DNA of 63,937 nt, filler included, from Vicugna vicugna (Eukaryota): NCBI GenBank assembly GCA_013265495.1. It is 76 parts of 74 records of this genome, joined end to end, with 100 filler letters (N's around TTAATTAATTAA, not from the genome) between each part and the next. Parts side by side here need not be neighbours in the genome. Positions count along the whole stretch, not along the records: positions 59,922 to 60,765 come from MU062257.1; 75 more parts are not named here. One strand, given 5' to 3'. Both the position numbers and the translations under genes were made by a program. The notes under the pieces were generated by a model. It was not told the origin of the DNA, did no database searches, and saw nothing but the letters and a program-made list of their open reading frames with translations. Positions within the stretch are counted from its first letter, which is position 1. Each line of letters opens with the position of its first letter. Positions 570 to 61,932 of this stretch are shown piece after piece.

Positions 570-2279
570 NNNNNNNNNNNNNNNNNNNNNNNNNNNNNNN
601 NNNNNNNNNNNNNTTAATTAATTAANNNNNNNNNNNNNNNNNNNNNNNNNNNNNNNNNNNNNNNNNNNNAGCTGACTCCGTGTCTGTTGCAGCTGACGTC
701 CACCACTGTCGGCCGTGTCGTTAATTTGTGGTAGTGAGTCTCCAACACCCCAGTCAGCCGTGAAGGAAAATGCTTTGGCCGATCTAGGACCTTGGATTCT
801 CACCCCTACCCTGGTTCATCTCACCTGGGGGAAGGGTTTGGCCACCACCAACATGCTGTCCATGAGGCCTTNNNNNNNNNNNNNNNNNNNNNNNNNNNNN
901 NNNNNNNNNNNNNNNNNNNNNNNNNNNNNNNNNNNNNNNNNNNNNNNNNNNNNNNNNNNNNNNNNNNNNNNNNNNNNNNNNNNNNNNNNNNNNNNNNNNN
1001 NNNNNNNNNNNNNNNNNNNNNNNNNNNNNNNNNNNNNNNNNNNNNNNNNNNNNNNNNNNNNNNNNNNNNNNNNNNNNNNNNNNNNNNNNNNNNNNNNNNN
1101 NNNNNNNNNNNNNNNNNNNNNNNNNNNNNNNNNNNNNNNNNNNNNNNNNNNNNNNNNNNNNNNNNNNNNNNNNNNNNNNNNNNNNNNNNNNNNNNNNNNN
1201 NNNNNNNNNNNNNNNNNNNNNNNNNNNNNNNNNNNNNNNNNNNNNNNNNNNNCAGTGCCTTCTGAGGTGACCCGTGCCAGGAGATGCCTCCCCCTCCAGG
1301 GAGCACCCTATGGAGGACTGTGACTCAATGCACCAAGCTGTGATCTTGTGGGGTTCCGGCCATGGTCCCTGCAGAACCAGACCTGAGATGGGCTTAGCGA
1401 GGGAAAAAATAGGACTGATTCCAGGGCAGGGGTTGGGGGAGGGAACAGTGGAAATTGAATATGACCTCAAACACCTAAGTGGGTGCTGGGGCTGTTACTA
1501 AAATGGNNNNNNNNNNNNNNNNNNNNNNNNNNNNNNNNNNNNNNNNNNNNTTAATTAATTAANNNNNNNNNNNNNNNNNNNNNNNNNNNNNNNNNNNNNN
1601 NNNNNNTGACCCTGATTACTTTAAAGACTATTTTTGGAAATGGAATAAATTTTCTAGAAGACAGAATTAGAATTAGGAAGTTAACTGCTTTCAACAAAGC
1701 AGATTTCTACCTATTATTAGGTAACCCCTCCTCAACCCACTGAGCTGTCCAAAGCTGCAGTTAATTTCCAACTTTGAGCAGGTCTGAGCACTGGCTAGAG
1801 AAATGCTTGGAGGGAGTGGTGTGGTAAGCTATCTCCAGCTCCCAGGCATGAGAAGACTTAGTAGGTACAATGACTAGCTAGTTATTGAACTTGTTCTAAA
1901 CCCTAAAGAAGAAAAGTAAATCAAACTCTTTCTTAGTAATGGTCCATTTTCTGTTCTTTCACTGGTAGTGAGAATCAGTGGCATCAGTTTTGTTAACTGT
2001 ATGGCAATGGCTGCAGGCAAATTAATCCGGCATTTATGAGGTCTTTGTAGATGCACCAAAGTGGAGGACCTTGGGATTCAATTACTTTCCCACTGCAAAG
2101 AAACCTCNNNNNNNNNNNNNNNNNNNNNNNNNNNNNNNNNNNNNNNNNNNNTTAATTAATTAANNNNNNNNNNNNNNNNNNNNNNNNNNNNNNNNNNNNN
2201 NNNNNNNGCGCCATGGAACTGAGCCAAAGGGAGGCGGGTTTTGGAGCAGGGAGGCTGAGCAGTGCCGTGTTGTTCGTAA

Positions 2280-2520
2280 GAAAATCCTGGGCTCTGGATC
2301 CACGAAGTCATTGGCTTGATACCTGACCCCAACCCTCATCTTGGGCAAATGTTTGAAGCTTTCTGTGCCTCTGTTTCTTGGTGTCCCAAATGGGGACAAT
2401 AGTAGCAATTACCTCTGAGAGTCAGGAGGGCCTTTATAGATGTCATTTCATTACGCTCACAGCAGCCCACGAGCATGGTGCTAGGTCCCCCAGTTTACAC
2501 GTGGCAGACAGGTAACCTTT
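2280..2520. mobile_element. MIR SINE fragments (one +, one probably -)
   Basis: ttgggcaaatgtttgaagctttctgtgcctctgtttcttggtgtcccaaatggggacaatagtag resembles the MIR core. Confidence 0.6.
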
Positions 2521-2776
2521 AAGAATGGACAGAACCACCATTTGTATATGATCCCTGTGTCCAGATAACTTCTATTCTCACTCAGTATCACTGGAAAACT
2601 AGTAACATCAGAACAAACACTGCTGGGAAGTGGCAGCTTGAAACATGTTTGTCGTCTTCGCCATTGGGGAGTGTTGNNNNNNNNNNNNNNNNNNNNNNNN
2701 NNNNNNNNNNNNNNNNNNNNTTAATTAATTAANNNNNNNNNNNNNNNNNNNNNNNNNNNNNNNNNNNNNNNNNNNN

Positions 2777-3186
2777 CAGGTTCTAAAATCGGACATTTGG
2801 CACCAAAAAACAATCTTTCAGTGAATTCTCACATATACAATTGTAATTTACATTGTTTACATAACCATGGCATTCCGTATTACGAACATGATTCATACAT
2901 CACAGATTCCTCAAACATGCATTTCTGAGCTGTGAACATGCGCCTGACTGAAGTTTCAAACACCAAACTAGTTACCTATGCACTTTGATAAATTTATTTT
3001 GAATGACTTCGTAGATTCTGCCTATCACCAGTTTCAAGAATCACACTTTGATCCCAAAAAAACCCTCTTGGTGCGTATTCTACCCTAGAGATATGTAATT
3101 TGAATACATTCCTTCTACAATATATTCCGTGTTCCTTAAAGGCTACATACATGAAGGATTTGACAAACATGCATTTTGAGTTGAGA
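2777..3186. repeat. Satellite family E (~247-bp diverged monomers)
   Basis: Colinear with 51901-52190 and with 56620-57790. Confidence 0.9.
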
Positions 3187-4863
3187 NNNNNNNNNNNNNN
3201 NNNNNNNNNNNNNNNNNNNNNNNNNNNNNNTTAATTAATTAANNNNNNNNNNNNNNNNNNNNNNNNNNNNNNNNNNNNNNNNNNNNAATGTCATATATCA
3301 GGGCCTGCTGAAATAATCCGGCAGACCGACCTTTCTTTCCTAGTTGCCGTACCGTGCCGGTGCCATCCAATATGCAGCAACGGCTTTTGGGAGATAATGC
3401 TGAAGGAAATGCTTCCTCATCTCACGCTGTGGACTTGGATCACACTTCACTGTCCTCTCATCCTTTTTGCATGGGTGCACGAAGGCAACCACAGAGCTAT
3501 TGCGCATCCTGTGCCTCAAACCAAACAATAATCCCAGCCCAGGTTATGAATGTAGCAGATCCTAAGGCTTTTCATTCTGATTTCAAACCCAATGACCCCA
3601 GGTTCCCTGAGACAAAATGCATGATATATCTGATTCAGCTCCAAACGTGCCCTATTGACAAAATGCCAAACTGGTCCCTGGTCCTGCAGATGCACTGGGT
3701 GTCGCTATGTTACATNNNNNNNNNNNNNNNNNNNNNNNNNNNNNNNNNNNNNNNNNNNNNNNNNNNNNNNNNNNNNNNNNNNNNNNNNNNNNNNNNNNNN
3801 NNNNNNNNNNNNNNNNNNNNNNNNNNNNNNNNNNNNNNNNNNNNNNNNNNNNNNNNNNNNNNNNNNNNNNNNNNNNNNNNNNNNNNNNNNNNNNNNNNNN
3901 NNNNNNNNNNNNNNNNNNNNNNNNNNNNNNNNNNNNNNNNNNNNNNNNNNNNNNNNNNNNNNNNNNNNNNNNNNNNNNNNNNNNNNNNNNNNNNNNNNNN
4001 NNNNNNNNNNNNNNNNNNNNNNNNNNNNNNNNNNNNNNNNNNNNNNNNNNNNNNNNNNNNNNNNNNNNNNNNNNNNNNNNNNNNNNNNNNNNNNNNNNNN
4101 NNNNNNNNNNNNNNNNNNNNNNNNNNNNNNNNNNNNNNNNNNNNNNNNNNNNNNNNNNNNNNNNNNNNNNNNNNNNNNNNNNNNNNNNNNNNNNNNNNNN
4201 NNNNNNNNNNNNNNNNNNNNNNNNNNNNNNNNNNNNNNNNNNNNNNNNNNNNNNNNNNNNNNNNNNNNNNNNNNNNNNNNNNNNNNNNNNNNNNNNNNNN
4301 NNNNNNNNNNNNNNNNNNNNNNNNNNNNNNTAGCTCTTTGTTTCTATACAACCGTGGTGGGAGGGATTTTCCGAAGACTCCAGTTTTGACATTGTGTTGA
4401 TATCTCATTTGTAGATTTTAAGAAGTTTAACAGAACTCATTTACATGTTTTGGGAGTTATACGAAAATGAAGTTAGATTTTGAAACATACTAAATCGACC
4501 TAGAAACCAGACTTGACAATTATGTTAACAATTTGTCATCTCTAAGGATAAATAGAAGATAGAATGCAAACAAGCAGTCCGAACTTTTAAAGGGGTCATG
4601 TCAACTCTTTACTGTTGAAGCCTCCGAAACCAACATTAACCATGAAATACCTATTGGAAACATGAAATAACCCCCAACCTTGGATTAACTTGTGCATGAG
4701 GTGCCCTTTACTCCCAAAGACACCTACTGGCCAATGTAGGCATTTCAAGGGGAAACATCCCTCNNNNNNNNNNNNNNNNNNNNNNNNNNNNNNNNNNNNN
4801 NNNNNNNTTAATTAATTAANNNNNNNNNNNNNNNNNNNNNNNNNNNNNNNNNNNNNNNNNNNN

Positions 4864-5410
4864 ATATTCTAAATTCTGTGTTCTACATTGTATATTCATA
4901 TTCTATACTCATTATTCGGTATTGAATATTCTAAATTCTGTGTTGTCCATTCCATGTTCTAAATTTTGTGTTCTATATTCTGTATTCTATACTCTATATT
5001 CTGTGTTCTACATTCTATATTCTAACTTCTATATTCAGTATTCTGTACTCTATATTCTAATTTCTGTNNNNNNNNNNNNNNNNNNNNNNNNNNNNNNNNN
5101 NNNNNNNNNNNNNNNNNNNNNNNNNNNNNNNNNNNNNNNNNNNNNNNNNNNNNNNNNNNNNNNNNNNNNNNNNNNNNNNNNNNNNNNNNNNNNNNNNNNN
5201 NNNNNNNNNNNNNNNNNNNNNNNNNNNNNNNNNNNNNNNNNNNNNNNNNNNNNNNNNNTATTCTGTGTATTCTAAATTCTAATTTCGAAATTCTGTATTA
5301 TGTATTCTATATACTATATTTTGTGTTCTAAATTCCATGATTTTATTTCTGGGTTCTATATTCTTTATTCTATATTCTATAATTTGTGTACATCATTCTA
5401 TACTCTATAT
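4864..5410. repeat. Satellite family C (AT-rich, 7-mer based: ATTCTAT/ATTCTAA/ATTCTGT/GTTCTAC)
   Basis: Continuous heptamer variants around TTCT; same motifs as 9197-10278 (opposite orientation) and 13490-14225. Confidence 0.9.
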
Positions 5411-7360
5411 NNNNNNNNNNNNNNNNNNNNNNNNNNNNNNNNNNNNNNNNNNNNTTAATTAATTAANNNNNNNNNNNNNNNNNNNNNNNNNNNNNNNNNN
5501 NNNNNNNNNNGGCCTTGACGTCTGCCTGGTTCTCTGTGTTTCTCTGTTGTGCTGAGTCCCCAGCCAGACAGCAAAATCCTAGGCCTGTCCCCACAAAACC
5601 CTTCTCTCCAAAATACAAGCACATCATGTCACAATCCTCTTGTTCAACCAGGGAATGTTCTGCCCAATTTTTTCCTCCCCAATAAACTACCCAATTGTCC
5701 TCCCTCCCATCACACCACTTCTTTCTTTGTGAGAACTCTGCACTCGCCAAACTCCATCCTGAACGCAGGTGCCTTGCTGGCTGGGACCGAGATGTTTCTT
5801 TCTCACACAGCCTGCGTCCTTTCACTTTCCCCTTGTTACCTTAAAAAAGCCTTTCCTGAGTCACCCACCCCTCTGATTCTGAACTTCACAAAATGCTGAG
5901 GTTGCAGTCACTATGTGCATACNNNNNNNNNNNNNNNNNNNNNNNNNNNNNNNNNNNNNNNNNNNNNNNNNNNNNNNNNNNNNNNNNNNNNNNNNNNNNN
6001 NNNNNNNNNNNNNNNNNNNNNNNNNNNNNNNNNNNNNNNNNNNNNNNNNNNNNNNNNNNNNNNNNNNNNNNNNNNNNNNNNNNNNNNNNNNNNNNNNNNN
6101 NNNNNNNNNNNNNNNNNNNNNNNNNNNNNNNNNNNNNNNNNNNNNNNNNNNNNNNNNNNNNNNNNNNNNNNNNNNNNNNNNNNNNNNNNNNNNNNNNNNN
6201 NNNNNNNNNNNNNNNNNNNNNNNNNNNNNNNNNNNNNNNNNNNNNNNNNNNNNNNNNNNNNNNNNNNNNNNNNNNNNNNNNNNNNNNNNNNNNNNNNNNN
6301 NNNNNNNNNNNNNNNNNNNNNNNNNNNNNNNNNNNNNNNNNNNNNNNNNNNNNNNNNNCTGGGGCATGACAGCCACACCAGTCTAGATTGAAAGAACAGT
6401 TGGGGTATTTGCAAGGTAATCACGGGCATGCAGCAAACTCCCCAGCTTCAATGACCTCATCTCAAAGCTGGGGCAAATAAAACTACCAAGCAAAGTGCGT
6501 GATGATTATGTTCGACATCTGTTTACTAGGTAAGTGCCCTTGAGAGCTACCGCTTAATGGGGAATGAGTACGATCAATGAGGCCCAGTCTACCTGNNNNN
6601 NNNNNNNNNNNNNNNNNNNNNNNNNNNNNNNNNNNNNNNTTAATTAATTAANNNNNNNNNNNNNNNNNNNNNNNNNNNNNNNNNNNNNNNNNNNNAGGGG
6701 TGTTCCTCAAATCTCGTATATCATGGCCACAGGAGGAATTTTCATGTTTATTTTTCACAATTCCATTCAACACAAATCGGCAGTTAGACAGTCCCTACTT
6801 TTGACCAACCTTATTTTTCCTACTGTCTTTTGGCCAGAAGTTAAAAGACAAGAAACAAACAAAACCTAACATTACAAACTAATCTATTTGCATTTTTATA
6901 ACATATTCACATGAGATAGTATGTTTTATAATTATGAAAAAACAGTTCAAGGACAGCCAAAGAGCAGTTAATCCATTCACATACTACAGGACATTATGAA
7001 TTTGGTGTCTGGTAGCAGGGCCAACCCCCCAAGTTATAGGCTTTTCCCATTTTTGAATATGAGTATTATGTCACCAAATACATGGGACTGGGGAACCATG
7101 AAAAACAAATGGAAAGTGGCTATGAACTTTAGACTTGAAGTAACTATGGACTTAAAAAATGTACACACACTATTAAAGTGGATGCCTTTTCAGCCTATAT
7201 AGAGGAGTTTATTAGAATTTTAAAAATTATCAATTAAAAAAGAATTAGCACACCATTCTTTGTAAGTGCTGCAGAGTCCCATAACAATATTAAATCTGGT
7301 TTATTTAGTCTCCCCCTATTGATGGACATTTAAAACATTTTTTTTATTACAGTGATTTTT

Positions 7361-7632
7361 CACATGCACCTCAATGTTCACAGCAGCACTATTTACAATA
7401 GCCAAGACATGGAAACAACCTAAATGCCCATCAGCATATGACTGGAAGTTGTTTTGTGTGTGTGAGTATATATATATAGTGTTTTATATATTTTTATATA
7501 TACATAGTGGAATACTACTCAGCCATAAAAAAGAGTAAATAATGCCACTTGCAAAACATGGATAGACGTGGAGATTGTCATTCTAAACCAGAAAGAGAAA
7601 GAAAAATGCCATCTGATATTGCTTATATGTGG
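7361..7632 (+). mobile_element. LINE-1 fragment, ORF2 C-terminal region
   Basis: aatgttcacagcagcactatttacaatagccaagacatggaaacaacctaaatgccc...gaatactactcagccataaaaaag is typical L1 3' ORF2 sequence. Confidence 0.92.
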
Positions 7633-7732
7633 NNNNNNNNNNNNNNNNNNNNNNNNNNNNNNNNNNNNNNNNNNNNTTAATTAATTAANNNNNNNNNNNN
7701 NNNNNNNNNNNNNNNNNNNNNNNNNNNNNNNN

Positions 7733-8462
7733 GTGAAGGACGGCTTTCACTGACACTTATCTCTCAGAACTTAGCATTTGGAGAGGCGTTCTTTAATTCA
7801 GCACAAAGGGAACGGGTTGCAGGAGAAACACTTACTCTGGTTTCTCAGTCTGTTTCCTAGTGCCGGTTTGAAGTGTCTACAGTTTTCACTGTAAAACCGA
7901 GTTGGAGCTTGTACCTCCCCATATATATGTATGGAGTGGAGTTGGCAACNNNNNNNNNNNNNNNNNNNNNNNNNNNNNNNNNNNNNNNNNNNNNNNNNNN
8001 NNNNNNNNNNNNNNNNNNNNNNNNNNNNNNNNNNNNNNNNNNNNNNNNNNNNNNNNNNNNNNNNNNNNNNNNNNNNNNCATTGCAGGAGAAACACTTACT
8101 CTGGATTCTCAGTCTGTTTCCTGGTGTTGTTTTGATGTGCCTGCCGTTTTCACTTTTAAACAGTGTTAGAGCTTGTACCTTCCCATATATATGTATGGAT
8201 TGGAGTTGGCAACTGTATAGAAACTTTGTGTTCCCTTCAAGCTAGGTGAAGGACGGCATTCACACACACTTATCTCTCAGAACTGAGAATGTGGAGAGAC
8301 GTTCGTTCATCCAGCACAATGGGAACGCATTGCAGGAGAAACACTTACTCTGGATTCTCAGTCTGTTTCCTGGTGTTGTTTTGATGTGCCTGCCGTTTTC
8401 ACTTTTAAACAGTGTTAGAGCTTGTACCTTCCCATATATATGTATGGATTGGAGTTGGCAAC
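7733..8462. repeat. Satellite family B (249-bp monomer)
   Basis: cattgcaggagaaacac at 8079 and 8328 gives period 249. Confidence 0.95.
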
Positions 8463-8680
8463 NNNNNNNNNNNNNNNNNNNNNNNNNNNNNNNNNNNNNN
8501 NNNNNNTTAATTAATTAANNNNNNNNNNNNNNNNNNNNNNNNNNNNNNNNNNNNNNNNNNNNAAAAAATAAGATGAAAATGTCCCAAAAGGGATGAGATG
8601 AAAGAAAGGCCCGTAAAATGTTAGAAAAATTATTAATACAGGATAAGATAAGCAGTTTTCTAAAATCAAAAATGACCCTT

Positions 8681-9196: not shown

Positions 9197-10278
9197 CACA
9201 GAATATAAAATATGGAAAACAGAAAATAGAAACCAGAATTTAGAACATGGAAAGCAGAACACATAATTTGGAATACAGATTACATAATACTGAATATAGA
9301 ATTTAGAATATAGAAAGTACAACACAGAATTATTAATATAGAATACAGAAAGTTGAATATAGTATTTAGAATATAGATTGTAGAACACAGAATATAGAAT
9401 ATATATTATAGATTATAGAACCCAGAATTTAGAAGAAGGAATGCAGAACACAGAATTTAGAATATAGCATACGGAATACTGAATATAGAATTTAGAATAT
9501 AGTATGTAGAACACAGAATATAGAATNNNNNNNNNNNNNNNNNNNNNNNNNNNNNNNNNNNNNNNNNNNNNNNNNNNNNNNNNNNNNNNNNNNNNNNNNN
9601 NNNNNNNNNNNNNNNNNNNNNNNNNNNNNNNNNNNNNNNNNNNNNNNNNNNNNNNNNNNNNNNNNNNNNNNNNNNNNNNNNNNNNNNNNNNNNNNNNNNN
9701 NNNNNNNNNNNNNNNNNNNNNNNNNNNNNNNNNNNNNNNNNNNNNNNNNNNNNNNNNNNNNNNNNNNNNNNNNNNNNNNNNNNNNNNNNNNNNNNNNNNN
9801 NNNNNNNNNNNNNNNNNNNNNNNNNNNNNNNNNNNNNNNNNNNNNNNNNNNNNNNNNNNNNNNNNNNNNNNNNNNNNNNNNNNNNNNNNNNNNNNNNNNN
9901 NNNNNNNNNNNNNNNNNNNNNNNNNNNNNNNNNNNNNNNNNNNNNNNNNNNNNNNNNNNNNNNNNNNNNNNNNNNNNNNNNNNNNNNNNNNNNNNNNNNN
10001 NNNNNNNNNNNNNNNNNNNNNNNNNNNNNNNNNNNNNNNNNNNNNNNNNNNNNNNNNNNNNNNNNNNNNNNNNNNNNNNNNNNNNNNNNNNNNNNNNNNN
10101 NNNNNNNNNNNNNNNNNNNNNNNNNNNNNNNNNNNNNNNNNNNNNNNNNNNNNNNNNNNNNNNNNAATATAAAATATACTCAATATATAATTTAGAATAT
10201 AGAATTAAGAAAACAGAATAAAAAATATACCTCAAAGAATATTGAAGCCAGATTTTGGAACATGGAAAGCAGAACTCA
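9197..10278. repeat. Satellite family C (reverse orientation)
   Basis: AGAAT/AGAAC heptamer variants; ccagaatttagaa landmarks at 9233 and 9422 are 189 bp (27x7) apart. Confidence 0.9.
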
Positions 10279-11474: not shown

Positions 11475-12801
11475 TTTCAACTAGCTTGAAGGAAACACAA
11501 AGTTTCTTTTCAGTTGCGAGCGCCTCTGCATACATATATATGGGGAGGTACAAGCTCCACTCGGTTTTACAGTGAAAACTACAGGAACTTCAATCCGGCA
11601 ATAGGAAACAGTGTTAGAAACCAAAATAAGTGTTTCTCCTGACCATTGTGCTAGATGAAAGAACGTAACTCAACACGCTTAATTCTGAGAGATAAGCGTT
11701 TGTGAAAGCGGTCATTCACCTAGCTATTTGGGAACACTAATTTCTATTCAGGTACGAACTCCACTACGTACATGTATATGGGGAGGGACAAGCTCCAACT
11801 CGGTTTAACAGTAAAAACTGCAGGAAATTCAAGCCGGCACTAGGAAACAGACTGAGTAACCAGAGTAAGTGTTTCTCCTGCAACCCGTTACCTTGGTGCT
11901 GGATGAACGAACGTCTCTCCACATGCTCAGTTCTGAGAGATAAGTGTGTGTGAAAGCCATCCTTCAACTAGCTTGAAGGGAANNNNNNNNNNNNNNNNNN
12001 NNNNNNNNNNNNNNNNNNNNNNNNNNNNNNNNNNNNNNNNNNNNNNNNNNNNNNNNNNNNNNNNNNNNNNNNNNNNNNNNNNNNNNNNNNNNNNNNNNNN
12101 NNNNNNNNNNNNNNNNNNNNNNNNNNNNNNNNNNNNNNNNNNNNNNNNNNNNNNNNNNNNNNNNNNNNNNNNNNNNNNNNNNNNNNNNNNNNNNNNNNNN
12201 NNNNNNNNNNNNNNNNNNNNNNNNNNNNNNNNNNNNNNNNNNNNNNNNNNNNNNNNNNNNNNNNNNNNNNNNNNNNNNNNNNNNNNNNNNNNNNNNNNNN
12301 NNNNNNNNNNNNNNNNNNNNNNNNNNNNNNNNNNNNNNNNNNNNNNNNNNNNNNNNNNNNNNNNNNNNNNNNNNNNNNNNNNNNNNNNNNNNNNNNNNNN
12401 NNNNNNNNNNNACGAACCTCTCTAAACATGCTTTTTTCTGAGAGATATGTGTGTGTGAAATCCCTCCTTCACCTAGCTTGAAGGAAACACAAAGTTTCTT
12501 TTCAATTGCAAACTCCACTCCATACATATATATGGGGAGGTACAAGCTCCAACTCGGTTTTACAGTGAAAACTGCAGGAACTTCAAACCGGCACTAGGAA
12601 ACAGTGTTACAAACCAAAGTAAGTGTTTCTCCTGCAAACGGTTCCCCTTGTGCTAGATGAACGAACGTCTCTCAACACGCTTATTTCTGAGAGATAAGCG
12701 TTTGTGAAAGCTGTCCTTTACCTAGCTTTTTGGGAACACAAATTTCTATTCAGCTTCAAACTCCTCTACGTACATATATATGGGGAGGGACAAGCTCCAA
12801 C
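11475..12801. repeat. Satellite family B array with variant monomers
   Basis: ctagct landmarks at 11481, 11720, 11968, 12473 and 12722. Confidence 0.95.
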
Positions 12802-13489: not shown

Positions 13490-14225
13490 AAATTCTGTGT
13501 TCTGCATTCTATGTTCTAAGTTCTATCATCATTACACTGTATTATATATATTAATTTCTGTGTTATGCATTTCATGTTCTAAATTCTGGGTTCTATTATC
13601 TATATTCTATATTCTATATCTGTGTCCTACATTTGTATTCTAAATACTATATTCAGCTTTCTGTATTCTACATTCTATATTCTGTGTTCTACATTCTATA
13701 TTCAAAATTCGATATTCAGTATTCTGTATTATATATTCTAAATTCTGAGTTCTACATTCTATATTCTAAATTGTATATTCATTCTTATATATTCTATATT
13801 CTAAATACTGAGGTCTGATTTCCATGTTCCAAAATCTGGCTTCAATATTCTCTAAGCTATATTTTTTATTCTGTTTTCTACATTCTATTTTCNNNNNNNN
13901 NNNNNNNNNNNNNTATATTCTACATTCTGTGATCTACATTCAATTTTTTAATTGTATATTAAGTATTCTGTATTCTATAATCTAAATTCTGTGTTCTGCA
14001 TTCCATGTTCTAAATTCTGGGATCTATATTCTCTTTTCTATTTTCTATATTCTGTGTTCTACATTGTATATTCTAAATTCTATAATCAGCATTCTGTATT
14101 CTATATTCTAAATTCTGTGTTCTGGATTCCACGTTTTAAATTCTGGGTTCTGTATAGTCTATTATATATCCTGTTTTCTACATTCTATATTCAAAATCCT
14201 ACATTCAGTATTCCGTATTTATATT
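13490..14225. repeat. Satellite family C
   Basis: Heptamer variants; attccaYgtt landmarks at 14000 and 14126 are 126 bp (18x7) apart. Confidence 0.9.
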
Positions 14226-15244: not shown

Positions 15245-16184
15245 TCTTCAGTCACAAGTGTTCCTTGTTAAGGGGAAGTTCGAGAAATATCTTCCCTGAA
15301 ATTATGGAGGCAGCGGCTGACCCTGGGATGTCCTGCAAACACCCCTAGGATTCCCTGGCAGCCAGACATTTGGAAAAGCCTTAGGGGAGAAGTGATTATT
15401 TATTCTGTTAGAACCCACACGGTGCCAACCGATGGTGGAACCTCCCCATGCTCAAGATTCCGGAACCATTCTCACTGCGTGGGGGAGCTCGAGAGACAAC
15501 TCCACGAGCTCTCTTCAGTCACAAGTGTTCCTTGTTAAGGGGAAGTTCGAGAAATATCTTCCCTGAAATTATGGAGGCAGCGGCTGACCCTGGGATGTCC
15601 TGCAAACACCCCTAGCATTCCCTGGCAGAGAGACATTAGGAAAACACTTAGGGTAGACCAGATTAGGTATTCCGTTACAACCCACGCACTGCCGACCGTT
15701 GATGGAACCTCCCCACCCTCAGGATACCGGAACCATTGTCAGTGCGTGGGGGAGCTCGAGAGACAACTCCACGAGCTCTCTTCAGTCACAGGTGTTCCCT
15801 GTTATGGGGAAGTCTGAGAAATATCTTCCCTGACCTTGGGGAGGTAGCTGCTGACAGTGGGCATTCCAGCGCAGATCCCTAGCATTTCTGGGAAGCCAGA
15901 TATTAGGAAAACCCTCAGGGGAGACGATCATAGGCATTCCGTTAACACACGGGCTGACGACAGTTGTTGGAACCTTCCCACGCTCAGGATTCCAGAAACA
16001 TTCTCAGTGCGTGGGGGAGCTCGAGAAGCCACAGGTGTTCCCTGTTAGGGGGAAATCCGAGAAATATCTTCCCTGACCTTGGTGTGTCAGCCGCTGACCC
16101 TGGGCATTCAGCGCAGATCCTTAGAATTTCCTGGAAGCCAGACATTAGGAAAACCCTCAGGGGACACGAGCTTATGCATTCCGT
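15245..16184. repeat. Satellite family A (267-bp monomer), divergent subtype
   Basis: tcttcagtcac at 15245 and 15512 gives period 267; there is an internal deletion near 16027. Confidence 0.95.
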
Positions 16185-29889: not shown

Positions 29890-31004
29890 GAAAACCCTCT
29901 AGGGAGACCAGCTTTGGCATTCCGTTAGAACACAGGCGCTGCTGACCGTTGTTTTAACCTCACAACGCTCAGGATTCCGGAACCATTGTCAGTGCGTGGG
30001 GGAGCTCGAGAGACAACTCCACGCAGCTCACTTCAGTCACAGGTGTTCCCTGTTCGGGGAAGTCCGAGAAATAACTTCCCTGACCTNNNNNNNNNNNNNN
30101 NNNNNNNNNNNNNNNNNNNNNNNNNNNNNNNNNNNNNNNNNNNNNNNNNNNNNNNNNNNNNNNNNNNNNNNNNNNNNNNNNNNNNNNNNNNNNNNNNNNN
30201 NNNNNNNNNNNNNNNNNNNNNNNNNNNNNNNNNNNNNNNNNNNNNNNNNNNNNNNNNNNNNNNNNNNNNNNNNNNNNNNNNNNNNNNNNNNNNNNNNNNN
30301 NNNNNNGGGGAAGTCCGAGAAATAACTTCCCTGACCTTGGGGAGGCAGCCTCTGTTACTGGGATATCCTGCAAACCCCCTAGCATTCCCTGCACAGAGAC
30401 ATTACGAAAACACTCAGGGGAGACGAGCTTAGACTTTCCGTTAGAACCCACGCGCTGCAGACGTTTGGTTTAACCTCCCCACGCTCAGGATTCCGGAACC
30501 ATTGTCAGTGTGTGTGGGAGCTCGAGAGACAACTCCACGCAGATCTCGTCAGTCACAGGTGTCCCTGTTCGGGGAAGTCCGTGAAAAAAGTTCCCTGATG
30601 TTGGGGAGGCAGAATATGACACTGGGATATTCTGCAAACCCCCCTAGCATTCCCTGCACAGAGACATTACGAAAACACTCAGGGTAGACGAGCTAAGGCA
30701 TTCCGTTAGAACACACGCGGTGCCGACCGTTGGAGGAACCTCCCCATGCTCAGGATTCCGGAACCATTGTCAGTGCGTGGGGGAGCTCGAGAGACAACTC
30801 CACGCAGATCTCGTCAGTCACAGGTGTCCCTGTTCGGGGAAATGCGAGAAATACCTTCCCTGACCTTGGGGGGGCAGCTTCTGTCACTGGGATATCCTGC
30901 AAACCCCCTAGCATTCCCTGCACAGAGACATTATGAAAACACTCAGGGTAGACGAGCTAAGGCATTCCGTTAGAACACACGCGGTGCCGACCGTTGGAGG
31001 AACC
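29890..31004. repeat. Satellite family A (264-265-bp variant monomers)
   Basis: Landmarks at 30311, 30575 and 30840. Confidence 0.95.
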
Positions 31005-34009: not shown

Positions 34010-34599
34010 CTGGGGCTCTTCAAAACCCGGGTAAGGCCCCGCTTCACCTAAGATGGGTTCTCCACCTGCCCTTCCCGGGGGGTTCTGGGAGGACACAGCC
34101 ACCAAGGGAGACCCAGACTCGCGGCTCCAGCCCCAGGGCCTAAGGGGGAGGAAAGCTTGAGGCTGTGCCCAAGCCCTGCCCCGCCCCCCCCCCAAATGCT
34201 CCCTGGCACCACAGCCCTCCCCGGCCACCACCCCAACCCCGATCCCACCGCGGTTCATGTAGACGGCGCGGACGTACTTTTACCTTCTGTGGGACGCCGC
34301 CCCAGACAGGATGTTGGCCGCCTACTGACCAGGTCAGAACTAGTCGCCCGGCCAAGCAAGCCGCCAACCCCAGCAGCAAGCACCGCCATGGTCCCTGGCA
34401 GCTACACACCTCCGGAGCCCGCTCCCCGCCCCAGAAGCGCACTGTGGCCCTTGCTGAGCACGGCGCCTGTAACCATGGCAACGCCGCGGGGCCCTCCCCT
34501 ATCGCTTGCGTCGTGCGTCCTCCCAAGTCTAGATGTGCGAGGGCAGAACTTGCAGAGCCAATGGGAGCCAGGGCGCGGCCAGAACTTCGGTGGGGGGAG
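34010..34599. promoter_or_regulatory. CpG-rich promoter fragment with RFX X-box (34469-34482) and CCAAT box (near 34558)
   Basis: GC/CpG-rich. GTAACCATGGCAAC fits the X-box consensus GTNRCC-N2-RGYAAC. Also gagccaatgg, and a candidate minus-strand first exon 34389-34284 ending gaag|gtaaaa. Confidence 0.65.
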
Positions 34600-34699: not shown

Positions 34700-36771
34700 T
34701 GCCAGGGAATGCCAGGGGTGATTACAGGATATCCCAGGGACCGATGCTGCCTTCCCAAGCTCAGGGAAGTTTTTTCTCCGACTTCCCCGAACAGGGAACT
34801 CCTGTGACTGAAGAGAGCTTCGTGGAGTTGTCTCTCGAGCTCCCCCACGCACTGACAACGGTTCCGGAATCCTGAGCGTGGGGAGGTTCCACCAACGGTC
34901 GGCAGCGCGTGGGTTGTAANNNNNNNNNNNNNNNNNNNNNNNNNNNNNNNNNNNNNNNNNNNNNNNNNNNNNNNNNNNNNNNNNNNNNNNNNNNNNNNNN
35001 NNNNNNNNNNNNNNNNNNNNNNNNNNNNNNNNNNNNNNNNNNNNNNNNNNNNNNNNNNNNNNNNNNNNNNNNNNNNNNNNNNNNNNNNNNNNNNNNNNNN
35101 NNNNNNNNNNNNNNNNNNNNNNNNNNNNNNNNNNNNNNNNNNNNNNNNNNNNNNNNNNNNNNNNNNNNNNNNNNNNNNNNNNNNNNNNNNNNNNNNNNNN
35201 NNNNNNNNNNNNNNNNNNNNNNNNNNNNNNNNNNNNNNNNNNNNNNNNNNNNNNNNNNNNNNNNNNNNNNNNNNNNNNNGTCAGGGAAGGTATTTCTCGG
35301 ACTTCCCCGAAAAGGGAACTCCTGTGACTGAAGAGAGCTGCGTGGAGTTGTCTCTCGAGCTCCCCCATGCACGGAAAACGGTTCCGGAATCCTGAGCGAG
35401 GGGATGTTACACCAACGGTTGGCAGCACGTGGGTTCTAACGGAATGACTAAGCTCGTCTCCCATGATTGTTTTCCTAATGTCTCTGTGCCAGGGAATGCT
35501 AGGGGTGATTGCAGGATATCCCAGTGACCGAGGCTGCCTCCCCAAGGTCAGGGAAGGTATTTCTCGTAATTCCCAGAAAAGGGAACTCCTGTGACTGAAG
35601 GGAGATGCGTGGAGTTGTCTCTCGCGCTCCCCCACGCACTGACAACGGTTCCGTAATCCTGAGCGTGGGGAGGTTCCTCCAACTGTCGGCAGCGCGTGGG
35701 TCCTAACTGAATGCTTAATCTCGACTCCCCTGAGGGTTTTCCTAATGTCTCTTTGCCAGGGAATGCTAGGGGTGATTGCAGGATATCCCAGTGACCGAGG
35801 CTGCCTCCCCAAGGTCAGGGAAGTTATTTCTCGGACTTCCCCGAAAAGGGAACTCCTGTGACTGAAGAGAGCTGCGTGGAGTTGTCTCNNNNNNNNNNNN
35901 NNNNNNNNNNNNNNNNNNNNNNNNNNNNNNNNNNNNNNNNNNNNNNNNNNNNNNNNNNNNNNNNNNNNNNNNNNNNNNNNNNNNNNNNNNNNNNNNNNNN
36001 NNNNNNNNNNNNNNNNNNNNNNNNNNNNNNNNNNNNNNNNNNNNNNNNNNNNNNNNNNNNNNNNNNNNNNNNNNNNNNNNNNNNNNNNNNNNNNNNNNNN
36101 NNNNNNNNNNNNNNNNNNNNNNNNNNNNNNNNNNNNNNNNNNNNNNNNNNNNNNNNNNNNNNNNNNNNNNNNNNNNNNNNNNNNNNNNNNNNNNNNNNNN
36201 NNNNNNNNNNNNNNNNNNNNNNNNNNNNNNNNNNNNNNNNNNNNNNNNNNNNNNNNNNNNNNNNNNNNNNNNNNNNNNNNNNNNNNNNNNNNNNNNNNNN
36301 NNNNNNNNNNNNNNNNNNNNNNNNNNNNNNNNNNNNNNNNNNNNNNNNNNNNNNNNNNNNNNNNNNNNNNNNNNNNNNNNNNNNNNNNNNNNNNNNNNNN
36401 NNNNNNNNNNNNNNNNNNNNNNNNNNNNNNNNNNNNNNNNNNNNNNNNNNNNNNNNNNNNNNNNNNNNNNNNNNNNNNNNNNNNNNNNNNNNNNNNNNNN
36501 NNNNNNNNNNNNNNNNNNNNNNNNNNNNNNNNNNNNNNNNNNNNNNNNNNNNNNNNNNNNNNNNNNNNNNNNNNNNNNNNNNNNNNNNNNNNNNNNNNNN
36601 NNNNNNNNNNNNNNNNNNNNNNNNTTTTCTTAATGTCTCTGTGCCAGGGAATGCTAGGGGTGATTGCAGGATATCCCAGTGACCGAGGCTGCCTCCCCAA
36701 GGTCAGGGAAGGTATTTCTCGTAATTCCCAGAAAAGGGAACTCCTGTGACTGAAGGGAGATGCGTGGAGTT
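34700..36771. repeat. Satellite family A
   Basis: tcagggaag at 35281, 35548 and 35815 gives period 267. Confidence 0.97.
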
Positions 36772-39094: not shown

Positions 39095-39927
39095 TGTGAC
39101 TGAAGAGAGCTGCGTGGAGTTTTCTCTCGAGTTCCCCCGTGCGCTGATAGAGGTTCCGGAATCCTGAGCATGGAGAGGTTCCACCAACATTCGGCAGCGC
39201 GTGGGTTCTAACGGAATGCCTAAGCTCGTCTCCCCTGAGTGTTTTCCTAATGTCTCTGTGCCAGGGAATGCTGGGGGTGACTGCAGGATATCCCAGTAAG
39301 AGGCTGCCTCCCCATGGTCAGGGAAGTTATTTCTTGGGCTTCCCCGAACAGGAAACTCCTGTGACTGAAGAGAGCTGCGTGGAGTTGTCTCTCGAGCTCC
39401 CCCAAGCCCTGACATTGGCTCCGGAATACTGAGCATGGGGAGGTTCCACCAACGGTCGGCAGCGCGTGGGTTCTAACGGAATGCCTAAGCTCGTCTCCCC
39501 TGAGTTTTTTCCTAATACCTCTGTGCCAGGGAATGCTAGGTGTGATTGCATGATATTCCAGTGTCAGAGTCTGGCTCCCTAACTCAGGGAAGGTATTTCA
39601 CGGGCTTCCCCGAACAGGGAACACCTGTGACTGAAGAGAGCTGCGTGGAGATGTCTCTCGAGCTCCCCCACGCACTGACAATGGTTCCGGAATCCTGAGC
39701 GTGGGGAGGTACCACCAACGGTCGGCAGCGCGTGGGTTCTAACGGAATGCCTAAGCTCGTCTCCCCTGAGGGTTTTCCTAATGTCTCTGTGCCAGGGAAT
39801 GCTAGGGGTGTTTGCAGGATATCCCAGTGCCCGAGGCTGCCTCCCCAAGGTCACGGAAGTTATTTCTCGGACTTCCCCATATAGGTAACACCTGTGACTG
39901 AAGAGAGCTGCGTGGATTTGTCTCTCG
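39095..39927. repeat. Satellite family A
   Basis: About three tandem monomers. Confidence 0.97.
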
Positions 39928-43977: not shown

Positions 43978-44480
43978 AAGCTCGTCTCCCCTGAGGGTTT
44001 TCCTAATGTCTCTCTGCCAGGGAATGCTAGGGGTGATTGCAGGATAACCCAGAGACCGAGGCTGCCTCCCAAGTTCAGGGGAGGTATTTCTCGGGCTTCC
44101 CCGAACATGGAACACCTTTAAATCTAGAGAGCTGCGTGAAATTGTCTCTCGAGCTCCCCCACGCACTGACAATGGTTCCGGAATCCTGAGCGTAGGAAGG
44201 TTCCACCAACGGTCGGCAGCGTGTGGATTCTAACGGAATGCATAAGCTCGTCTCCCCTGAGGGTTTTCGTAATGTCTCTGTGCCAGGGAATGCTAGGGGT
44301 GATTGCAGGATATCCCAATGTCAGAGGCGGCCTCCCCAAGGTCAGCGAACGTATTTCTCGGACTTCCCCGAACATTGAACACCTGTGACTGAAGAGATCT
44401 GCGTGGAGTTGTCTCTCGGGCTCTCCCTCACACTAACAATGTTTCCGGAATCCTGAGCGTGGGGAGGTTCCAGCAACGGT
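43978..44480. repeat. Satellite family A
   Basis: About two monomers. Confidence 0.96.
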
Positions 44481-48495: not shown

Positions 48496-49257
48496 TGGTG
48501 GGGGATGGGCTCTAAAGCCATGTATTAGCGAGTGCATCTCAGTGGGTAGTGGGGGGTTTTAAAATACTTCCCCAACCTTGGAACACCTGTGCCCCATAAA
48601 GATGCGTGGAATCTGTTTCCCCACCTCCAGCACACACACGGAGACGGGCTCAGGTATCCTGATTGTGGGGAGGCTCCTCCAAATGTCAGCAGAGCCTGGG
48701 TTCTAATAGAATCCCTTAGCTTGACTTCCCTGATGGCATGCCTAGGCTGGAGAGTGGGGGAAAGGCTCTAAACCATGTATTAGCGAGAGCCTATCCATGG
48801 GATGTGGGTTTTTAACGTACAACCCACAACCGTGGAATAAATGTGCCCCCTGACTTATGTTTGACTGTTTCCCTACATCCAGCACACACGCGAAGAAGTG
48901 TCCTGGTATTCTGAGTGTGCGGAGTTTCCTCAAACTGACAGCAGCACCTGGGTTCTATTAGTACCCCTTAGCTTCTGTTCCCTGAGTGTTCCTTTAGGCC
49001 AGGACATGAGGGAAAGCTGGGGGTTGGGCTTGGAGGCCAATTAGCAGGGAGTGACCCCTGATACACTGAGGAAGTACTTAGAGGACTTCTCCCTAAACGG
49101 AACACCTTTTCCTCCATTCATCTGGGTGGAGAGTGGCTGCACATCTCTCCCACACCTAAGAAAGTGTTCTGGAATTCTGAGTGCAGGGAAGTTCCTACAA
49201 CAGACATCAGCTCCTGGGTTCTTATTGAATCCCTTTGCTTGTCTTCCCTGATGGAAA
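48496..49257. repeat. Satellite family D
   Basis: Colinear with 51080-51622; landmarks at 48711, 48963 and 49229. Confidence 0.92.
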
Positions 49258-58339: not shown

Positions 58340-58421
58340 CTTTTCAAAGGAGGTACTGGGTCTTGAACCCAGGACCTTGTACATACTAAGCACGTGCTCT
58401 ACCACTGAGATATACCCACCC
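58340..58421 (-). mobile_element. tRNA-Ala-derived SINE (Vic-1-like)
   Basis: Minus strand reads gggtgggtatatctcagtggtagagcacgtgcttagtatgtacaaggtcctgggttcaagacccagtacctcc, with A-box and B-box (GGTTCAAGACC). Confidence 0.88.
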
Positions 58422-58906: not shown

Positions 58907-59821
58907 CCTAGCTTGAAGGGAACACAAAGTTACTTTTCAGGTGCCAACTCCCCTCCAAACATACATATGGGGAGGTGCAATCTCCAACTCAGTTTTACAC
59001 TGAAAACGGCAGGCACTTCAAACCGGCACTAGGAAACAGACTGAGAAACCAGAGTAAGTGTCTCTCCTGCAACCCGTTCCCTTTGTGCTGGATGAACGAA
59101 CGTCTCTCCACATGCTCAGTTNNNNNNNNNNNNNNNNNNNNNNNNNNNNNNNNNNNNNNNNNNNNNNNNNNNNNNNNNNNNNNNNNAGCTCCAACTCGGT
59201 TTTACAGTGAAAACGGCAGGCACATCAAACCGGCTCTAGGAAACAGACTGAGAAAGCATGGTAAGTGTCTCTCCTGGAACCCGTTCCTTTTGTGCTGGAT
59301 GAACGAACGTCTATCCACATGCTCAGTGCTCAAAGATAAATGTGTGTGAAAGCCGTCCTTCACCAAGCTTGAAGGTAACACAAAGTTTCTTTACAATTGC
59401 AAACTTTCCTCCATACATATATATGGGGAGGTACAAGCTCGAAATCGGTCTTACAGTGTAAACGGCAGGCACTTCAAACCGGCACTAGGAAACAGACTGA
59501 GAAACCAGGGTAAGTGTCTCTCCTGCAACCGGTTCCCTTTGTGCTGCATGAACGAACGTCTCTCCACATGCTCAGTTCTGAGAGATAAGTGTGTGTGAAA
59601 GCCGTCCTTCAGCTAGGTTGAAGGGACACAAGTTTCATTTCAGTTGCCAACTACCCTCGATACATATATACGGGAAAGTACAAGCTCCAACTCGGTTTTA
59701 CAGTGAAAAAGGTAGGCAACTCAAGCCGGCACTAGGAAACAGACTGGAAACCAGAATAGGTGTATCTCCGTCAAAGCGTTCCACTTGTGCTGGATGAACG
59801 AACGTCTCTCCACATGCACAG
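58907..59821. repeat. Satellite family B
   Basis: aaccggc at 59228 and 59477 gives period 249. Confidence 0.96.
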
Positions 59822-59957
59822 NNNNNNNNNNNNNNNNNNNNNNNNNNNNNNNNNNNNNNNNNNNNTTAATTAATTAANNNNNNNNNNNNNNNNNNNNNNN
59901 NNNNNNNNNNNNNNNNNNNNNGAGTGCGGTGCGGTCGCGGGGCCTCGGATGGAATGG

Positions 59958-60326
59958 GGACTGCCCAAGAGAGCTCCTGGATTTGCTCCCATCTTACCCG
60001 TGGCCTGACCTTGGGGCAGCATCTAAAGACCCAGGATCGTGGGACTCAGGTTACAGGTCAGTCTGCTCCTGGGAGGTGGGCTCGGTGTGATCAGTGTGCT
60101 GGGATGGCTGCAGCAGCAGCGGGAAATGGTCGCAACACCCGCGCTCTCACAGGGCAGCCCCTATCCCGCCATCGCAGCTGCTGCCTTTCCCTGAGAGCAC
60201 AGCACCCGCCTTCCAGGAGCAGGCTGACCTGTAACCTGAGTTCCACGAACCTGAGGCAGCAGAGGCCAAGCTCAGGCCATGTGCTGGGGAGTTTGAAGCA
60301 AATCCACGGGCTCCCATGGGCAGACC
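59958..60326 (+). other. Long imperfect inverted repeat / predicted rod-like RNA hairpin
   Basis: 60037-60080 pairs with 60205-60248 (44 bp: 40 Watson-Crick, 4 G-U); 60001-60014 pairs with 60266-60279; 59961-59987 pairs with 60297-60323. Confidence 0.85.
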
Positions 60327-60865
60327 NNNNNNNNNNNNNNNNNNNNNNNNNNNNNNNNNNNNNNNNNNNNNNNNNNNNNNNNNNNNNNNNNNNNNNNNGT
60401 GGGGAAGATGGGGGCAAGTCGACCAGCTTGCCAGGTCGCTGCCCATCTCCCTGCCGCTACCCCAGGTTCGTGGATCACTTGTTTTCAATCAGTGGTTTCC
60501 TGAGAGGCAGGCGTGTTGCAGTCAGTTGGCGAGGGCTGCAGGGAAGGGTGCTGCCCCAAGGGGAGCAGGTGGACTTTCTCCCATCTCCCTCAGGGCCAGA
60601 CCTGGAGACAGTCTCTGCTGCCCCAGGTTTGCAGGACGCATGTCATGCCAGCCTGTCCCTGGGAGGAAAGCTCAGTGTACACGGGGCAGCCTCAGTGGCT
60701 GACAAGGATTTTAGAAGTGAGCTCTAGCCCAGCATAACTAACTCTCCTTTCTTCTCTTGCTTCCTNNNNNNNNNNNNNNNNNNNNNNNNNNNNNNNNNNN
60801 NNNNNNNNNTTAATTAATTAANNNNNNNNNNNNNNNNNNNNNNNNNNNNNNNNNNNNNNNNNNNN

Positions 60866-61932
60866 AAACGGCAGGCACTTCAAACGGGCACCAGGAAAAA
60901 GACTGAGAATACAGTGTAAGGGTTTCTCCTGCAACCCGTTCCTTTGGGCTGGATGAACGAACGTCTCTCCACATGCTCAGTTCTGAGAGATAAGTGTGTG
61001 TGAAAGCCGTCCTTCACCTAGCTTGAAGGGAACACAAAGTTTCTTTTCAGTTGCNNNNNNNNNNNNNNNNNNNNNNNNNNNNNNNNNNNNNNNNNNNNNN
61101 NNNNNNNNNNNNNNNNNNNNNNNNNNNNNNNNNNNNNNNNNNNNNNNNNNNNNNNNNNNNNNNNNNNNNNNNNNNNNNNNNNNNNNNNNNNNNNNNNNNN
61201 NNNNNNNNNNNNNNNNNNNNNNNNNNNNNNNNNNNNNNNNNNNNNNNNNNNNNNNNNNNNNNNNNNNNNNNNNNNNNNNNNNNNNNNNNNNNNNNNNNNN
61301 NNNNNNNNNNNNNNNNNNNNNNNNNNNNNNNNNNNNNNNNNNNNNNNNNNNNNNNNNNNNNNNNNNNNNNNNNNNNNNNNNNNNNNNNNNNNNNNNNNNN
61401 NNNNNNNNNNNNNNNNNNNNNNNNNNNNNNNNNNNNNNNNNNNNNNNNNNNNNNNNNNNNNNNNNNNNNNNNNNNNNNNNNNNNNNNNNNNNNNNNNNNN
61501 NNNNNNNNNNNNNNNNNNNNNNNNNNNNNNNNNNNNNNNNNNNNNNNNNNNNNNNNNNNNNTCCCTACATAGGGGTGGTACAAGCACTAACTCGGTTTTA
61601 CAGTGAAAACGGTAGGCACTTCTAACCGGCACTAGGAAACAGACTGAGAAACCAGAGTAAGGGTTTCTCCTGCAACCCGTTCCCTTTGTGCTGGATAAAC
61701 GAACGTCTCCCCACATGCTCAGTTCTGAGAGATAAGTGTGTGTGAAAGCCGTCCTTCACCTAGCTTGAAGGGAACACAAAGTTTCTTTTCAGTTGCCAAC
61801 CCCACTCCATACATATATATGGGGGTGTACAAGCTCCAACTCGATTTTACACTGAAAGCGGCAGGCACTTCAAACGGGCACCAGGATAAAGACTGAGAAT
61901 CCAGTGTAAGGGTTTCTCCTGCAACCCGTTCC
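60866..61932. repeat. Satellite family B
   Basis: Monomer motifs on both sides of the gap. Confidence 0.96.

Follow-up and report, generated by a model that had tools for sequence, protein, structure and literature searches.

A multicopy scaffold of Vicugna vicugna with four subunit copies in both orientations forms two hairpins and is probably a complete intron

Inverted Alu pairs form intronic inverted-repeat duplexes that are edited by ADAR, C19MC is an intron-hosted miRNA cluster, and Drosophila hpRNA loci are long-hairpin sources of small RNAs. Drosha acts on a stem of about 35 bp with a short apical loop, and in mammals other than rodents long duplexes are a weak source of siRNA. To our knowledge, large lineage-specific sources of nuclear dsRNA or small RNAs are rare outside primates and rodents, and we know of no young DNA transposons in artiodactyls. 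In the cited portions of published work, SNHG14 is described as a heavily edited repeat host (PMC8594476), and Tribolium satellites are described whose monomers contain inversely oriented subunits (PMC13081366). GC-rich satellites of alpaca include VpaSat04-5242, VpaSat05-8550 and VpaSat13-2326, with 63-72% GC; VpaSat13-2326 (63% GC) is credited in the cited part of the catalogue with more than 200 predicted amplicons in alpaca and 23-33 in camels (PMC13751797).

The locus analyzed here resembles ADAR-edited inverted repeats in its long near-perfect duplex, its two inverted repeat copies and its probable location in an intron. However, its arms are copies of a camelid subunit of about 155 nt and not a SINE, and the whole putative intron appears to be amplified, in contrast to inverted Alu pairs and SNHG14. 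It was found in a window of 63,937 nt, the whole stretch of DNA that was analyzed, in which a constant separator links 76 small scaffolds. The scaffold concerned (59922-60765, 844 nt) is made of two contigs with an assembly gap between them (Table 1). BLAST of this scaffold against the other scaffolds of the window gave only chance matches of 12-30 nt (best E 0.47), and Tandem Repeats Finder reported no tandem repeat in it.

The window is rich in satellites, and about 31 of its 76 scaffolds were placed in four tandem-repeat clusters (15, 8, 5 and 3 scaffolds) by Tandem Repeats Finder and BLAST clustering. A GC-rich satellite with a period of 265-267 nt occurs at 15245-16026, 30307-31004, 35280-35888, 39095-39927, 43978-44480 and elsewhere; its BLAST cluster covers 15 of the 76 scaffolds, and a 252-nt variant at 48498-48985 belongs to it. 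The second satellite family, with a period of about 250 nt, was present in eight scaffolds (58907-59821, 60866-61932, 7733-8462, 11475-12801 and four more), two of which adjoin scaffold 59922-60765 in the window and are unrelated to it. An AT-rich 7-nt minisatellite with a 63-nt higher-order period was found in three scaffolds (4864-5410, 9197-10278 and 13490-14225). The window also contains a tRNA-like match at 58348-58419 on the - strand (40.8 bits), probably a tRNA-derived camelid SINE, for which we take Vic-1 to be the name, and a CpG-island-like scaffold at 34010-34599 with 67% GC, 38 CpG and several long open frames without a Pfam match.

A 44-bp stem without bulges, reported in a preliminary description of this DNA, was confirmed. 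Watson-Crick pairs occupy 40 of its 44 positions, and the other four (60043/60242, 60062/60223, 60073/60212 and 60077/60208) are G-U on the + strand. An inverted-repeat search also recovered the outer helices of that description, here I2 (59958-59994/60290-60326) and I5 (60001-60014/60266-60279), and the core stem encloses 124 nt. As a fold, the + strand of the 369-nt region reached -222.9 kcal/mol (z -11.8), and none of 100 shuffles was as good; the - strand folded equally well, at -224.1 kcal/mol (z -10.2). The core block exceeds chance: the longest paired run was 44, where permutation gave a mean of 14 (P 1e-4), and the best 44-column identity between the arms was 40 compared with 35 by permutation (P 0.003). 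The core duplex was 16 kcal/mol stronger on the + strand (-93.3 kcal/mol) than on the - strand (-77.3 kcal/mol), and the outer and inner parts of the hairpin folded better on the - strand. The bias towards G-U pairs on the + strand, which had been put forward as suggestive, held within the core but disappeared over the whole arm-to-arm alignment, where 9 G-U, 9 A-C and 22 other mismatches were counted.

The hairpin had been taken to fill nearly the whole contig. The stem was borne out, but the element runs past 60326, and on the far side of the gap there are two further arm copies. The scaffold contains four copies of the subunit of about 155 nt, in the order A+ B- C- D+, which fold into two hairpins (Table 1). 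The visible part of hairpin 2 folded weakly, with a z of -2.4 on the + strand and -2.1 on the - strand. The apex of hairpin 1 is worn by two changes of CG-to-CA type and is paired in the fold of the - strand. Both apices, with short stems and 4-nt loops, have the shape that fold-back inversions may leave behind. The segment 60441-60478 is similar, in forward orientation, to the central part of the subunit, yet it aligns to the subunit start in reverse, so the subunit itself seems to hold an older inversion.

Table 1. Features of scaffold 59922-60765 (positions along the window).
Feature	Position	Strand	Remarks
Tail of putative 5' splice site, GAGTG	59922..59926	+	One of 4 donor-like starts among 222 contig ends; GT outside scaffold
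Subunit copy A, hairpin 1 5' arm	59925..60131	+	Alignment to reverse-complemented B; direct alignment to D
Core stem, 5' strand	60037..60080	+	44 nt; pairs with 60205-60248
Apex of hairpin 1, short stem with 4-nt loop 60144-60147	60137..60154	.	Read from sequence
Subunit copy B, inverted, hairpin 1 3' arm	60157..60326	-	Alignment and inverted repeats I1, I2, I5
Core stem, 3' strand	60205..60248	+	44 nt; pairs with 60037-60080
Assembly gap, 72 N	60327..60398	.	Predicted content: 27-33-nt end of B and most of inverted copy C
Subunit copy C, visible end, inverted, hairpin 2 5' arm	60401..60479	-	Reverse alignment to 59923-60000
Apex of hairpin 2, short stem with 4-nt T loop 60482-60485	60476..60494	.	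Read from sequence
Subunit copy D, direct to A, hairpin 2 3' arm	60517..60710	+	69% identity to A over 126 columns, E 5e-7
Putative branch point CTAAC (60738-60742) and polypyrimidine tract	60738..60765	+	AG outside scaffold

The occurrence of the element in sequencing runs was also investigated. Words of the stretch were contained in 20 of 24 runs, and the best 14 (share 0.49-0.67) came from five organism labels. Contig evidence was taken from four of the 24 runs, namely DNA run X1 and three RNA-labelled runs; X16, X18 and X20, with small shares, were left out. In X1, 591 contigs matched the 844-nt scaffold, with a likeness of 99% or more in 143, 95-99% in 184, 90-95% in 144 and below 90% in 120. 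The mean depth per X1 contig was 14-113 times that of the longest low-depth pieces (28-41) at six places, and the bin 60212-60240 had the highest summed depth across the scaffold. The total depth was a median of 59 times the depth without the majority letter at 19 of 25 places, and at the other six the letter of the window occurred in no contig. The scaffold is multicopy, and the data suggest tens to hundreds of copies, a range to which the claim is restricted because summed depth does not equal copy number.

The centre of hairpin 1 was bridged by contigs of X1 (records 2 and 3), X15 (records 10 and 11) and X17 (records 17 and 18), and that of hairpin 2 by contigs of X1 (records 7 and 8) and X17 (record 23). 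Because diverged contigs bridge both inversion joints in several runs, the hairpins are a trait of the family and not of the window copy alone. A read fold-back or assembly artefact, which the preliminary description had already discounted, was rejected: the words occur in many runs, including DNA runs of the five organism labels, nearly identical contigs are numerous in X1, and contigs of three runs bridge the inversion centre. The same description had not recognized a repeat family, and this proved wrong, as the arms are two of the four copies of one subunit in a multicopy family. The counter-case it had raised, two inverted copies of a known repeat, applies in substance, although the repeat was not matched to a named family. 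Its frame of a single-locus editing inducer or splicing duplex is also wrong, given the multicopy state and the four subunit copies. Its interpretation as a whole is partly supported; the stem, the four subunits, the multicopy state and the inversion joints shared by other copies are established.

Contigs also gave information on the gap. X1 has a joint from 60325 to 60198 with 27 letters between, similar joints occur in X17 and X19 (27-33 letters), and a B-like loose end was found before 60399. Copy C would thus stand in tandem behind B at a period near 155 nt and occupy the gap, whose true length is probably nearer 110-115 nt than 72. Compared by eye with the reverse complement of 59928-59957, the loose end behind 60326 matched at 18 of 30 places, so hairpin 1 probably extends almost to the scaffold start. 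At the apices, the family letter at 60137 brings back one pair of hairpin 1, and a G inserted behind 60488 in three of the four runs gives one extra pair in hairpin 2.

We analyzed the variation among the copies. Only 2% of the X1 matches continue into unlike sequence. A-to-D joints in the contigs showed that the subunits also occur in switched combinations, and some copies have different loops, in which joints between the arms skip 92-115 nt. Certain letters are common to the three RNA-labelled runs but absent from X1, for example at 60535, 60652 and 60669, and these three runs therefore stem from other stock. When X1 was read against the window, 40 AT-to-GC and 11 GC-to-AT places were counted, and the window copy has drifted towards AT. 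The X1 majority differs from the window at 25 listed places, of which 16 have a pairing partner: nine become Watson-Crick, two lose a Watson-Crick pair, one gains and one loses a G-U pair, and three stay mismatched (40 of 186 rows of differences were listed, and contigs of one arm may align on the other). At 60516, 60526, 60532, 60648, 60681 and 60720 no X1 contig has the letter of the window, so contig 2 (60399-60765) may hold errors or may be a different or private copy in comparison with contig 1.

The scaffold start had been proposed as the tail of a GT-GAGT donor. A partner was found for it in the branch point and pyrimidine tract at the scaffold end, also on the + strand, but the GT itself would lie outside the scaffold. 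Pyrimidines make up 23 of the last 25 letters, and this is the sole contig end with at least 22 among the 222 in the window, a count made after the motif had been seen. As the donor-like start and the branch-point end are in the right order on the + strand, this is likely the transcribed strand. The scaffold is probably one whole + strand intron of a multicopy unit, as judged from these motifs, and a short-read assembly that breaks at exons near-identical among copies would yield such a scaffold. The two hairpins would span nearly the whole putative intron, starting at about +8 and ending 45-50 nt upstream of the branch point. The two contigs are linked by the assembly only, and none of the listed pieces spans the whole stretch.

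Both contigs contain a + strand frame without stops; the gap length is an estimate, so a frame shared across them means little. No homologue of this frame was found in a search restricted to longer proteins. A protein-coding repeat was rejected, as none of five frames had a Pfam match and the family commonly has 1-nt insertions at 59963, 60012 and 60488. A Pfam search for a host gene in 79 frames of 14 other, mostly GC-rich, scaffolds of the window gave no match.

The splice-like ends bear on two other origins. The scaffold could be the monomer of a complex satellite, or of a macrosatellite, whose subunits face in opposite directions; transcription would be absent or merely leaky, and the splice-like ends would be due to chance. 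The tandem-repeat clusters of the window, the tandem joint at the subunit level and the small share of X1 matches that leave the element agree with this, as does the existence of GC-rich alpaca satellites such as VpaSat13-2326 in the cited part of the catalogue (PMC13751797). We nevertheless consider it distinctly unlikely, because the donor-like start and the only branch-plus-pyrimidine end among 222 stand in the correct order on one strand; in addition, none of six scaffold ten-mers occurred in the first 400 letters of the VpaSat consensuses (PMC13751797), a weak test given consensus lengths of 1863-8550 letters. The palindromic shape, the many copies and the range of divergence would fit a MITE or non-autonomous fold-back DNA transposon, or a piece of an LTR element. 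This origin seems highly improbable, as the two ends of the scaffold do not form an inverted repeat, the subunits also occur in tandem and in switched combinations, the ends are splice-like, and young DNA transposons are, as far as we know, absent from artiodactyls.

The core differs from the rest of the subunit. Its identity was 40 of 44 (91%) between A and B, and 29 and 28 of 44 between these and D, while the outer parts were 65-67% alike in all three subunit pairs. Core arms 91% alike, against about 65% elsewhere, fit either gene conversion or selection on pairing. None of the 18 listed hairpin 1 differences fell within the 88 core letters (P 0.007; 40 of 186 rows listed). All four core mismatches are G-U on the strand indicated by the splice signals, which has a one-sided chance of 1 in 16 if transitions are random. 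Selection on pairing explains this core pattern as well as conversion does. The X1 differences beyond those listed include four T>C and four G>A, eight letters as in four G-U pairs, so the four core G-U pairs may differ from copy to copy. With the family letters at 60029, 60036 and 60254, the stem would reach about 52 bp.

The same multicopy intron could thus carry a core duplex that is selected as RNA, either as a platform for ADAR binding or editing or as a structure that brings the donor near the branch point. A long near-perfect duplex, as in ADAR substrates, was found on the sense strand indicated by the splice-like ends. The G-U mismatches on that strand, the greater strength of the core there, the restriction of its similarity to the A/B pair, the lack of listed family differences within it and the longer stem given by family letters all speak for this reading. 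Still, we hold it to be rather unlikely, since G-U and A-C mismatches are balanced overall, the - strand gives the better fold in the outer and inner parts, and pair-restoring family letters can come from contigs of the opposite arm aligned across. Editing was also not apparent: the share of A>G was 0.20-0.26 in the three RNA-labelled runs and 0.25 in the DNA run (Fisher P 0.44-1.0). The A>G to T>C counts were 22:16, 33:22 and 35:21 in the RNA-labelled runs compared with 15:13 in the DNA run (Fisher P 0.80, 0.64 and 0.48), in unmatched runs in which paralogues confound the comparison. X19 alone showed an excess of A>G over T>C (P 0.031, uncorrected), with the same confounding by paralogues and unmatched runs.

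Contigs covered 28 of 30 bins in all three RNA-labelled runs; they are strandless and may be DNA carry-over. If they do come from RNA, this coverage, together with the high copy number of an intron consisting of little else than hairpin and the copies with different loops, would accord with a camelid cluster of intron-hosted long hairpins that give siRNAs or miRNAs, by analogy with C19MC or Drosophila hpRNA loci. Such a cluster appears very doubtful. A stem of at least 44 bp topped by 124 nt differs from the Drosha geometry of about 35 bp, siRNA output from long duplexes is, as noted above, weak in non-rodent mammals, and the eight Rfam matches in the scaffold were all far below the gathering score (best 28.5 bits against 137). 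A broader proposal holds that an undescribed amplified camelid transcription unit, with tens to hundreds of copies, has an intron consisting almost wholly of two long hairpins with a selected duplex of 44-52 bp, and is a mammalian counterpart of hpRNA or C19MC-like clusters or a dedicated array of ADAR substrates, possibly active in reproductive tissue. We regard this proposal as unlikely.

The explanation that we prefer, to which we give about an even chance, is a fold-back by-product in an amplified intron, kept alike by conversion and at most passively edited. The scaffold would be one complete, GC-rich intron of roughly 890 nt, in a transcription unit repeated tens to hundreds of times in camelid genomes, as a tandem macrosatellite or an amplified gene. 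Fold-back inversions and a tandem duplication of the subunit would have built the intron before the unit was amplified; with the hairpins assembled before amplification, many copies would have inherited them. Gene conversion, from arm to arm and from copy to copy, would have kept the 44-bp core alike in A and B. The + strand RNA, if transcribed, would form a long duplex, and its editing by ADAR would be probable as a by-product. The intron status, the fold-back origin, the conversion and the editing are what we infer from the pattern as a whole. The equal folding of both strands, the 9:9 ratio and the absence of an A>G excess over DNA were counted against function, and the four G-U core mismatches, the core likeness confined to A and B and the lack of listed core differences were counted against the by-product reading.

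As a neutral element it would be a neat, so far undescribed repeat of camelids, and it would caution that an extreme fold z-score for a small unplaced scaffold can reflect inverted subunits within a repeat. Under selection of the core, the numerous diverged copies would serve as natural material for covariation analysis, and the array would supply nuclear dsRNA or small RNAs on a large, lineage-specific scale.

Published records were searched for the element. Six 15-16-nt pieces of the stem did not occur in the literature searched, and titles and abstract starts on alpaca satellites, DUXC arrays, inverted satellite subunits, SNORD115/SNHG14, camelid editing and camelid miRNA clusters contained nothing pointing to it. 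The cited portions of papers on DUX arrays (PMC13558733), SNHG14 editing (PMC8594476), SNORD115/116 evolution (PMC12429941) and Tribolium satellites (PMC13081366) do not name it, and the paper with the alpaca satellite catalogue (PMC13751797) uses neither 'inverted' nor 'palindrom' in its main text. Scanning by pattern for host DNA gave 24 loci in GTDB genomes, one in IMG/VR and four in JGI metagenomes, and the best 25 BLAST rows, of 20-29 nt, were chance matches. DUXC and SNHG14 were considered as hosts from their description only.

Compared with known systems, the putative intron differs from SNHG14 in that no snoRNA was found in it; Rfam gave no SNORD match in the scaffold or the window, and a snoRNA-free intron of an SNHG14-like unit is still compatible with the data. 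The element shares with C19MC and hpRNA loci a repeated unit with hairpins, and with C19MC a probable intron as host, but its stem geometry is unlike that of a pri-miRNA and it lacks an Rfam match. Like the VpaSat families it is camelid, GC-rich and present in many copies, in a window rich in satellite scaffolds, and the three GC-rich families could be hosts of the unit. Tribolium satellites, in the portion cited, likewise have subunits in both orientations and conserved inversion joints able to form long hairpins, but these are pericentromeric insect arrays of kilobase scale without intron signals, whereas here four subunits lie within less than 1 kb in a mammal (PMC13081366). By analogy, the scaffold would work like an inverted-repeat intronic duplex, with ADAR substrates, miRNA clusters, VpaSat satellites and MITEs as candidate classes.
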